From NCBI RefSeq assembly GCF_056712565.1, contig NZ_CM160072.1: a stretch of 64,000 nucleotides of DNA. One strand, 5' to 3'. Shown here in pieces: positions 21,501 through 24,500 of the stretch; within the stretch, counting starts at the first letter, position 1; the number at the start of each line of letters is the position of its first letter. The position numbers were made by a program.

Positions 21501-24500
21501 CTGTTCCTGAACAGCTTCCCCCTACGGAAGATAATAAACAGCCTTCTTTTGATGTTCTTGATGATTGGGATGCGCCTTTGCCGTGGGAGACGGAAGAAAC
21601 ACCTGTTTCATCAAGTGAAAAGGTAGCTAATGATAATGAGGAGGATGTGTTAGAGAATTTTGCCTCTCTTATCTGCCGGCAGAAGAATACCAGAACAGCA
21701 GGGGCATCATTTATAGAATTTGCAAATTCACTAGCTTATAGACACGGGCTAAAACGACCAAATGGTATTGAGGCATATTTTTCTAAGCATTACCCAAATG
21801 TATACGAAGACTTTGATATTCCATTTTAATAAGGAGGGTTATGATTCAATATTTAGTAAAAAATCAAGTAGACAGAATTCAGTGTAATGACACAGGAAAA
21901 CGCATCTATGAAACGCTTGCTTTCCTATACAAAGGAAAGCCAACACCGCTAAAATATAGCGATGTGTTACATCGAGCAGGGTGCTCTGAAGATGGTTTAA
22001 AATTCTGGCTGAAACAGCTATCAAACTTCGGTGTTATTGAGATTAAAGAATTATCTTTCTCTACATTCAATCTCAAAAGACTAGATAAAGTAGAATTCAT
22101 CTATTCCACTCTCTAAAATCTCTCTATGTAATTAAAATATAAAAGGAAAACATTATTATGATAGTAGCTATGTATTGGTTATTGTTCTTTCTCACGTTAG
22201 AAACATATTTCGGGGTGTTTTCCTTTAAAAGAAAAGGAAAAATAAATAATGGCAAAAAGAAAAAACAACGTTGTTAAGAAAATCGGGGATTCAGCTTCTC
22301 TTCTAAGTAAACCTAAATCTATTCTAAGACGTAAAGACTTTAAAGAGCTAGTTACGCTCACCAAGCATAATAGCGCCCCTGGCGAATGGAAAACAGAGAT
22401 CATAGAACATTCTCCCTCTGTGCCTTGTGGAGATGAATATATCGCATTACAAGAAATCTTATCTTCAACACCTGGCGTATTCTGGAAACCTAGAAAAAGA
22501 AAAGAGTATATTGTTGATAGCTCTGATTTACGCAAATACCAGATTTTAGGATTTGAAGACTATAACCACTACGTTGGTTATCTCGCCACCAATGGCCTAA
22601 ATAATTTAGTTCCTGAATTCCAAATTTTAGATAATGCTGATTATGGAGACTTTTAATATGAACAAAAACACGTATGACACAATTTACTCACTAATTAATT
22701 ATTATGAGGATGATTACCTCCTGCCTTTAAACCGTGCTGAACTTGATGCATATAAAGAAAATACGCCAGCGGCATTAAATGAGGCGTTTAAACACTGGGA
22801 TTTAGCCCTTTCTGCCTTGGAGCACCTTTTTAAAAGAATAGAGATGCTCTGTAAGCGTGAGAACGCATACCTGACAGCCGATCAGATATGGGAGTTATCA
22901 AACTGGATAGAAGATATTGAATCTGATGTTCGCTATGTGGGAGATGGCCTTATCGAACTCGCTCAACGCTTAGGCGCTATCACAGAAGAATAAAAAAGCA
23001 ACAAAAAAGTTGTAAAATATCTTGACATTCCATCTATTGTATGTTAATATAATTATATGGGGTGATTATTTTTCCTTTATTGGTTCGATATTAAAAATTC
23101 TTCTTGTCGTTAAAGGGGAGTAAAATCTCCGCTCCCCGCTTCTCCTCCTTAAGTAAATACTGTGTCATTATTACCTCTTTCCTTTGTTATGCATACATCT
23201 TGGAGTATGCATAACATAGGGTAATTACATAGGTACAAGTTAATAAAAGGCGGCTTTAAATGCTGCCTTTTATTTTGCCCGTTATGCAACTTAAAAGTTG
23301 TATTTCTTACTTTAAACAAGGTAACAAGGTTTATATAAATGTTGTTCTTAAACGATAAAGAGCAAATCATCAAATATAAAGATGAAATGCTGAAAATTAA
23401 TCCACAAATTACCGAAATGGTAGCTAAATACGCTGGGTGTTCTGTCGAGGAAGTAGAAAGATGTGTTGAAAAATATTTTTCTCCTTCTTCTCCGTCTACA
23501 CCTTCCCTTAATGAATTAATCAAATTAAAAGCTAAGGAGATTACTAAATGATTATTGATTTAGACGCTCTATTTCCAGTCAGAAAGACTTTCATAGATCT
23601 GGTAAGTTATTGTACTGATCCGTTTGCCTCTGTAGAAAACAAGGTTTTTGCTTCTCTTCCTGCTGATGTTGAATGCGGAGACTTGATCACCAGCACTGGC
23701 GCTAAATATGAATCAGGAGATGATATCTATGTTGTTATGAGTGAATTTGTAACGGCTGGAGACAACAAGCCTGTAGATGTTTTACGTAGCAATGCTGGGC
23801 TTGTATGCATCAAAGCTGATGCGCTGAATGCTGTAAGTGAAGCAGCAAAAACAGCATTAATTAAAAAAGGCTTTCAGCTTGAAGGGTTCCACTCTGTTTT
23901 CACTTCTTAATAAAAGGAATAATAATAAATGATTCTAGGTAATGATTACGTTGATTTAGCTCCGCTGTTCTCTGCGCATAGCACTAGAAACTATCTGCTT
24001 TCTACTCTGGATTTTACGGATTCTGTAGGGGTTACATCTCATAAAGTAGCTGTTTCCCAGCTTGTCGAAAGCAACGAATCTCTCTTTAACAAAGAGACAA
24101 GCCGTTTTAGTTCTGAACACAACGTCACTAAGCGAGAACAAGGTAAAGAATGGCTGATTCAAATCCCTTACTTCCTGCGTGAAGATGTGATTAGACCTTC
24201 TGATGTTCAAGGCAAACGTAAACCAGGTACTGATTTCCAGGAAACACTCACTGATATTTATGCTGACTATGTTGCTAAACACCACGTAGCGTATCAGCGT
24301 ACAAAAGAGAGCGTATTGGCTGCTTCTCTGTTTAGTGGTCGCACCTATACCCGGAAAACTGATGATGTTCTTATCGAGTGGGGCAAGCTGTTTAACGTAT
24401 CAGCTATGAAAGCCACTGTGAACGCTTCCAGCACTGACACCACGAAGATTTTTAAAGAATTTGATCAGATTGCTACTGACATTATCGAAAAAGCACAAAG

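Follow-up and report, generated by a model that had tools for sequence, protein, structure and literature searches.

A conserved promoter, structured leader RNA and terminator ahead of the capsid and tail genes of a satellite-like Escherichia coli island

A constitutive promoter, a terminated leader and late genes that are freed by read-through make up the textbook logic of lambdoid late control, and to our knowledge no description of it exists for a satellite of large virulent myophages. Satellites can encode non-coding RNAs; in P4, the CI RNA is tied to the premature ending of a transcript that is made constitutively. Among described systems, StxS is a regulatory small RNA (sRNA) derived from the terminated PR′ transcript of Stx phages (PMC7547250), and SviR is an sRNA of the PLE satellite of Vibrio cholerae (bioRxiv 10.1101/2022.04.08.487710). 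Here we analyze the interval 23022-23338 in 64,000 nt of E. coli chromosome (RefSeq assembly GCF_056712565.1, contig NZ_CM160072.1; the whole stretch is called the window below), where a σ70 promoter, a structured non-coding RNA and an intrinsic terminator precede the structural genes of an integrative, satellite-like island. The initial annotation had taken this interval for a lambdoid late-control region, with a PR′-tR′-like layout, a promoter-proximal pause and read-through licensed by the Q protein of a helper phage.

In its layout, the locus does resemble the PR′-6S RNA-tR′ segment of lambda. In both, a σ70 promoter lies just after the last early gene (at a distance of 28 nt here and 43 nt in lambda), the terminated transcript is ∼200 nt long (a predicted 223 nt here versus 194 nt), and the structural genes sit behind the terminator with no promoter of their own. 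Unlike lambda, the island has no Q homologue, no recognizable Q-binding element and only a candidate pause element; its partners appear to be virulent phi92-like myophages, and the RNA of its relatives reaches 400-950 nt, with many conserved helices and tandem terminators. StxS offers a second parallel, in that a short by-product RNA of terminator-gated late transcription can itself be regulatory, but the two RNAs share no sequence similarity, and the carrier here is a satellite-like island rather than a lambdoid prophage. With SviR and the P4 CI RNA, the leader RNA has in common that it is a non-coding RNA encoded by a satellite; however, SviR is not positioned as the leader of a structural operon, no complementary target boxes like seqA and seqC of P4 were found here (a search for P4-like self-complementary boxes gave none above chance), and there is no homology to either RNA. 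The island as a whole is like the P4-like, PICI/SaPI, capsid-forming PICI, PLE and PICMI satellites in that it is small, is integrated at a tRNA gene, encodes an integrase and a replication initiator, has origin repeats and carries a few helper-related morphogenesis genes. What sets it apart from these families is that it encodes a major capsid protein, a tape-measure homologue and a tail-tube initiator of its own but no portal, protease or terminase, and that it is related to the Stephanstirmvirinae.

The promoter at the start of the interval is the top match of a consensus scan over 4 kb, with agreement at 10 of 12 positions and an extended −10. Its −35 element, TTGACA (23022-27), is separated from the −10 element, TAATAT (23045-50), by a 17-nt spacer that ends in TGT. 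The combination of a perfect TTGACA, a 17-nt spacer and the TGn motif of the extended −10 is found only twice in the 64-kb window when both strands (128 kb) are counted, once here and once at 20611, where it forms the early promoter of the island. Transcription from the promoter is predicted to start near 23057. The near-consensus promoter of the initial annotation is therefore present, with a TGn in addition, as are the further hexamers TATAAT (23047-52) and TTATAT (23053-58) that it placed just downstream. These hexamers span about −10 to +2 of the predicted start, however, and lie ahead of the transcribed region, which argues against the role of pause signal that had been given to them. GATTAT is the sole plausible candidate for a σ-dependent pause element and may possibly act as one; hexamers of the form nAnnAT (AAGTAT, GAGTAT, TAGTAT, TAGAAT) occupy the equivalent place in other clades, and such hexamers are frequent in A/T-rich DNA. 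A T7-type promoter was also considered on account of the motif TATAGGG and was rejected: no phage RNA polymerase is annotated in the examined part of the helpers, and the σ70 promoter accounts for the start.

The predicted transcript would run into an intrinsic terminator with a stem of 10 pairs, including one G·U pair that can form on the + strand only, or of 13 pairs in the extended form given by a separate scan. That scan detects the terminator, which the consensus scanner left unflagged, apparently because the stem enters A/T tracts and the counted tail becomes too T-poor. Only beyond it does the first structural open reading frame (ORF) begin, at 23339, as the initial annotation had it; the RefSeq annotation of an identical copy gives the same start. 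No σ70-like promoter was found between the terminator and this ATG, the best match in the window type being 6 of 12. Since no promoter was found behind the predicted terminator, expression of the structural operon would depend on read-through. Because no terminator lies between 22993, the end of the last early gene, and the promoter, read-in from the early operon would be stopped at the same terminator. A second strong terminator follows the capsid gene directly and again has no promoter behind it, so that the tape-measure and tube-initiator genes stand behind two terminators. The same succession of capsid gene and terminator is seen in phage PaulScherrer (L124 7555-7639), together with several further terminators without promoters. 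A second terminator without a promoter fits processive read-through, and the arrangement as a whole would suit processive, regulated read-through as well as plain leakiness.

This organization is conserved well beyond the window. The 701-nt region occurs in 307 of 5426 complete E. coli genomes (∼6%), and capsid homologues with 37-77% identity are found in Citrobacter, Klebsiella, Enterobacter, Cronobacter, Dryocola and Serratia. The loci of these relatives are syntenic and have 350-950 nt of non-coding sequence at this very position. After addition of over 100 loci from metagenomes and IMG/VR, the leaders form 34 clusters at 93% identity, which come from E. coli, Klebsiella, Enterobacter, Citrobacter, Serratia and metagenomes. 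The promoter at the start of the gap matches the consensus at 10-11 of 12 positions in 33 of the 34 clusters and at 9 of 12 in the remaining one, most with TGn, and a clade outside the first filter (L051 type) has TTTGCA-18-TATAAT at the same place. All 34 clusters have a terminator 24-166 nt ahead of the first structural ATG, many of them a tandem pair. Its position is unchanged across clades that use at least six distinct stem sequences (GGCGGC, GCCGGAAG, GCCGGGG, AGGGGC, GAAGCGGC, GGCGAC and others). When the last 110 nt before the ATG were scanned, a stretch that still includes the terminator in many clusters, the best σ70-like match was 5-7 of 12 in most clusters.

The RNA between promoter and terminator is itself highly structured. 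Folding of the 290-nt transcript gives −82.7 kcal/mol against −55.8 ± 4.6 kcal/mol for shuffled sequences (z = −5.8), and the opposite strand is weaker (z = −4.7). The three structures that had been pointed out in the initial annotation, including the terminator, are found at the same coordinates in our analysis. Hairpin 2 is built on a perfect 11-bp stem (GUUAUGCAUAC/GUAUGCAUAAC) with an 8-nt loop, and flanking pairs lengthen it. Across the 31 distinct sequences of the E. coli clade, all three helices are invariant save for one A to G change in hairpin 2, which converts an A-U pair to G·U, and every indel sits in the pyrimidine-rich linkers. The slot of hairpin 1, between AAAG and CUUCUCC, is filled by a GC-rich hairpin in the E. 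coli, Klebsiella and long clades, although the stems differ (GCGGCAGGG/CCCTGCTGC and GCGCGGG/CCCGCGC in other clades). Alignment of the window-type RNA across clades with MAFFT and RNAalifold recovered hairpin 1 alone and was too poor for a formal count of covariation. For 16 alignable long leaders, in contrast, RNAalifold predicts 76 pairs, 34 of which show compensatory changes on both sides. Many of the pairs in the long leaders are G·U, formable on the + strand only, and the conserved 5′ GGG pairs with CUCC immediately 5′ of the terminator stem. The long clade further shares conserved loop and 5′ motifs such as the invariant TCGAATCAC.

The leaders thus constitute a structured RNA family whose conserved secondary structure is backed by compensatory changes. 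Searches of the window and its relatives against Rfam 15 returned tRNAs and noise only, and the leader RNA matches no family there. It is too large and too conserved for a mere spacer. The window type has 220 nt, and since the 400-950 nt and compensatory pairs of its relatives exceed what an attenuator needs, the RNA probably has a function of its own. Taken together, these sequence features support a constitutive-looking σ70 promoter that gives a short, structured and terminated transcript.

Several smaller observations concern the leaders of the relatives and candidates that we discarded. Long-type leaders have an invariant 5′ hairpin with a T-loop-like loop, AUUCGAAUC. They also have, ∼130 nt before the final terminator (L011, L012, L057, L063 and similar loci), another structure that resembles a terminator; it is Y-shaped and consists of GGGGG...CCCCC with a U-rich tract behind it. 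A leader peptide was rejected because the only mini-ORFs (ATGGGGTGA and a 10-codon ORF within hairpin 2) are not conserved. A boxA-like TGCTTTCTAACAA precedes the terminator in some clades; it was rejected as a Nus site, since it forms part of a covarying hairpin, differs at core positions and does not occur in the window type.

Table 1. Positions of the module, the island and their genes in the window (predicted features are named as such)
Feature	Position	Strand	Basis or remark
σ70 promoter, TTGACA-17-TAATAT with extended −10 (predicted)	23022..23050	+	consensus scan
GATTAT, −10-like hexamer at ∼+7 to +12	23063..23068	+	sequence
Leader RNA, ∼220 nt (223 nt), predicted non-coding transcript	23057..23279	+	fold; helices kept apart by pyrimidine-rich single-stranded linkers
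Hairpin 1, GGGGAG(U)/(G)CTCCCC, 9-nt loop, then CUUCUCCUCCUUAAG	23115..23137	+	sequence and fold
Hairpin 2, GTTATGCATA(C)/(G)TATGCATAAC	23186..23215	+	sequence, fold, inverted-repeat set
Intrinsic terminator, AAAAGGCGGC / loop TTTAAAT / GCTGCCTTTT, then ATTTTG (predicted)	23245..23277	+	ΔG −17.5 kcal/mol
Palindrome GCAAC-AAAAAA-GTTGT	22998..23014		centre ∼51 nt upstream of predicted start
Second palindrome copy GCAAC-TTAAAA-GTTGT	23286..23302		between terminator and ribosome-binding site
Last early gene, acidic three-helix protein of 111 amino acids (aa)	22658..22993	+	ends 28 nt before −35
Structural ("late") operon	23339..27839	+	Pfam and PHROG matches; homology to phage PaulScherrer proteins
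70-aa ORF, then 120-aa ORF	23339 onward	+	start of structural operon
Major capsid protein (Phage_cap_E)	23929-24957	+	Pfam, PHROG
Second strong intrinsic terminator (predicted)	24975..25010	+	directly after capsid gene; no promoter ahead of next gene
67-aa ORF	between capsid and tape-measure genes	+	ORF
Tape-measure-like protein	25263-27092	+	Pfam, PHROG, phage homology
Dit-like tail-tube initiator	27126-27839	+	Pfam, PHROG, phage homology
Island, 12.8-kb integrative satellite-like element at tRNA-Thr (thrW)	16590..29359		direct repeat, tRNA, GC content, gene set
Early promoter of island, TTGACA-17-AATAAT with TGn (predicted)	20611..20639	+	only other perfect TTGACA/17/TGn site in window
Small ORFs	20752 onward	+	early genes
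Helix-turn-helix (HTH)/RepO-like protein	21176-21829	+	Pfam, PHROG matches
Tyrosine integrase	right end of island	opposite	gene set

The phage affinity of the island is to phi92/phAPEC8-like phages. The tail-tube initiator of phage PaulScherrer shares 60% identity with the Dit-like protein, without a single difference in the first 25 aligned residues. The tape-measure-like protein has a PaulScherrer homologue over its whole length, with 53% identity in the first 66 residues and a near-identical opening stretch, and the capsid protein has a full-length distant homologue in the same phage (21% identical, E = 9e-9). The gene order is that of the phage as well, with the 120-aa ORF in the position of the decoration gene, followed by the capsid gene and, further on, by tape measure and tube initiator; the 120-aa protein shows no similarity to the phage decoration protein. 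At the DNA level, ∼20946-21529 is 89-99.6% identical to sequences in the Stephanstirmvirinae phages muut, inny, Mt1B1_P17 and BI-EHEC, which are virulent myophages of ∼146-151 kb. The shared DNA spans a 55-aa ORF and the HTH-bearing N-terminus of the RepO-like protein; in the phages, this HTH part is the N-terminus of a larger protein of ∼330-370 aa. This suggests a recent exchange or mimicry of DNA-binding specificity. The late-region promoters of PaulScherrer belong to the same TTGACA/TGn class as the island promoter, and the related phage rV5 is reported to have σ70-type promoters throughout, without T4-type late factors (PMC3606486). The initial transcribed sequences at L124 2761-2857, 4427-4522 and 14914-15028 (TTATATG, TTTATGGGA and GATAAGGGAG) resemble the start of the leader, ATTATATGGGGTG, a likeness that may reflect a shared promoter-proximal signal. 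The island appears to parasitize large virulent phi92-like phages. We found no description of such an element, or of a satellite of these phages, in the literature that could be searched.

We lean, with confidence a little above even, toward the reading that the module is a PR′-tR′-like gate, which insulates the structural operon until the terminator is read through and whose partners are phi92/phAPEC8-like phages. The near-consensus promoter with its extended −10 would be served by host σ70 and yield a structured, non-coding RNA of ∼220 nt that the strong intrinsic terminator would end at 23276. Early-operon transcripts would be halted by the same terminator, and the promoterless capsid/tail operon would be silent. 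The structural operon, including the genes past the second terminator, would come on only when RNA polymerase passes the terminators; the likeliest occasion would be infection by a helper phage, or an island early protein made at that time. The terminated RNA would probably have a function, be it as a regulator in trans or as the scaffold for establishing read-through. As regards gating by termination, the initial annotation was probably right, and the promoter, short terminated RNA and promoterless late operon of its PR′-tR′-like layout hold; the lambdoid affiliation does not, as the structural proteins and the DNA patches are those of phi92/phAPEC8-like virulent myophages.

Several points weigh against a regulated gate. 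Start, stop and read-through are predictions, and no antiterminator is identified in the island or in the annotated part of the helper-type phage: Pfam and PHROG matches of the tested island ORFs contain no Q-type antiterminator, in agreement with the initial annotation, which saw no obvious one, sequence searches of the early proteins against the PDB are likewise negative, and the annotation of the first 100 kb of phage PaulScherrer includes no transcription antiterminator. A constitutive consensus promoter on a resident island is unusual unless the RNA is the product, and the size of the RNA (up to ∼950 nt) and its conservation are explained at least equally well by a stand-alone RNA gene. 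In one relative, L009, a promoter-like site matching at 10 of 12 positions follows the terminator. Terminators in phage late operons can also be simply leaky and thereby adjust the proportions of the proteins made, so the data do not call for regulated antitermination.

A fuller version of the gate, which we put forward only tentatively and consider rather improbable, would make the module the licensing switch of an undescribed family of satellites of phi92/phAPEC8-like phages. Here a new class of RNA (220-950 nt, no Rfam family) would be made constitutively and would sense the helper through a phage factor or a phage-modified RNA polymerase. The resulting terminator-resistant transcription would express the capsid, tape-measure and tail-tube-initiator genes and so rebuild the head and tail of the helper.

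The alternatives that survive best are two, both rather unlikely in our estimation. According to the first, the RNA is a stand-alone gene that acts in trans on island, helper or host transcripts, and its place before the capsid operon is incidental or insulating; the structural genes would then be switched on by leak-through or by an unrecognized helper-specific promoter. In favour of such a gene are its own consensus promoter, a strong terminator with a U-tail, many covarying helices in the 400-950-nt RNAs of the relatives and conserved loop and 5′ motifs, and sRNAs of satellites and phages provide precedents (bioRxiv 10.1101/2022.04.08.487710; PMC7547250). The pyrimidine-rich linkers are moreover complementary to the Shine-Dalgarno regions of the island genes at 21841, 22249 and 25263. 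This complementarity is within chance, however: the longest complementary run between the leader RNA and island transcripts is 15 nt with G·U allowed, compared to 12-19 nt in shuffles. Pairing of the leaders with their own first translation start, in an anti-Shine-Dalgarno manner, has a mean z of −0.84 over 33 clusters, and BLAST of short and long leaders against 50,697 phage genomes gave chance matches only. The tandem terminators and the missing downstream promoter in nearly all clades point instead to gating, although the two roles are not exclusive.

According to the second alternative, which we hold to be as probable as the first, the switch is encoded by the island. An early protein (the 111-aa protein, a basic 135-aa protein or an HTH protein) would bind the flanking palindromes or RNA polymerase and control the promoter or the read-through in a Q-like or AlpA-like way. 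The 111-aa gene is conserved, with 24-33% protein identity across clades, and is in every case the direct neighbour of the promoter, which recalls the place of Q next to PR′ in lambda; genes for HTH proteins lie upstream. The two palindromes of Table 1, which form a direct-repeat family (D2) with 15 of 17 positions identical, flank the RNA gene as a CAAC-N6-GTTG pair, TAAC-N6-GTTA is found at one or both equivalent positions in other clades, and similar GTAAC-N5-GTTAC sites occur in the origin/regulatory region. The paired palindromes are a hint of a DNA-binding regulator. They are short and A/T-rich, however, and are absent from some clades such as the Klebsiella type, and short repeats in two copies often arise by chance. 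An AlphaFold2 model of the acidic 111-aa protein (predicted local distance difference test, pLDDT, 88.7) has three long helices and is predicted to be a generic three-helix bundle without an informative structural neighbour: no significant fold or sequence match was found in the PDB (best matches E > 0.1, none to Q), and the sole listed Pfam match, GCN5L1 with E = 0.11, is under its cut-off. The 135-aa protein gave no usable model (pLDDT 31.6), and a search for homologues of the early proteins for a deeper alignment returned only close E. coli copies.

Much less probable is a self-sufficient antitermination RNA like the put sites of HK022, with which the operon would be on whenever the promoter fires. 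Conserved stem-loops directly downstream of a strong promoter, with more than one terminator to pass, would suit such an RNA, but strong, conserved and often tandem terminators would then be pointless, capsid genes would be expressed constitutively from a resident island, and the leader is not similar to any known RNA family in Rfam. Least credible of all is the literal lambdoid model, in which a helper of lambda, 21, 82 or Stx type supplies the Q protein, which takes hold of RNA polymerase at a −10-like pause element close to the promoter and takes it past the terminator: the PR′-tR′-like geometry and a −10-like GATTAT at ∼+7 to +12 speak for it, whereas the Stephanstirmvirinae origin of the structural genes and shared DNA, the lack of lambdoid cos or packaging genes and of a Q homologue among our findings, the position of TATAAT and TTATAT upstream of the predicted start, and the phage-specific nature of Q-binding elements, none being recognizable here, all speak against it.

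The module lies within an island of the E. coli chromosome. The window runs through proB, proA and the tRNA-Thr gene thrW (16538-16613) into a low-GC stretch, with 35-39% GC in the island and ∼50% in the flanks. A 25-nt direct repeat with 23 of 25 positions identical bounds the island as attL (16590-16614, the 3′ end of thrW) and attR (29335-29359). Except for the integrase at the right end, on the opposite strand, the island genes are co-oriented; three genes for unknown proteins follow the HTH/RepO-like gene and lead up to the interval 23022-23338. Ahead of the early genes, 18360-20600 is a gene-free stretch of 2.3 kb that is dense in repeats: seven iterons of ∼24 nt (CCCCCACAGAATTCTGTTA, 19096-19530), three copies of ACCTAGGAAATGAGTTCC (19197-19277), many "cattacac" motifs and GTAAC-N5-GTTAC palindromes. 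With iterons and repeat sets and no genes, it is therefore likely an origin of replication and probably a regulatory region, and relatives have an equivalent gene-free stretch of 1.5-2 kb. Portal, protease and terminase genes were not found in the island. Its gene content, with att sites, an integrase, a replication module and part of a helper-related morphogenesis set, is consistent with that of a phage satellite.

Other features of the region were noted in passing. The recombinase at the left end (17820-18359, − strand) is a serine resolvase/invertase, and relatives have a small Phage_integrase-domain protein there. We see no gene for a divergent repressor in any part of the island, despite its early promoter. 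In strain Sakai the thrW locus is occupied by other elements. The DNA next to attR contains a P4-type integrase fragment (29513-29851), a MarR-like gene (30286-30810, − strand) and a gene for a 1376-aa serine-protease autotransporter (30936-35066, − strand); this region, 29513-35066, resembles the vat/vatX island. A weak Thr-leader-like Rfam match (E = 0.3) is located at 30086-30197 on the − strand.

The module appears to belong to a so far undescribed family of satellites, centred on a structured RNA that has no annotation. Phage therapy against capsulated and avian-pathogenic E. coli makes use of phi92-like phages, and a gate of the kind that we favour would be a compact sensor of infection by these phages. 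Whatever overrides the terminators, whether it comes from the helper or from the island, would then be a new antitermination activity, and the leader would represent a new conserved family of structured RNAs. The module would also provide an entry to a satellite family that has its own capsid and tail-length genes and is present in ∼6% of complete E. coli genomes and in several other Enterobacterales.

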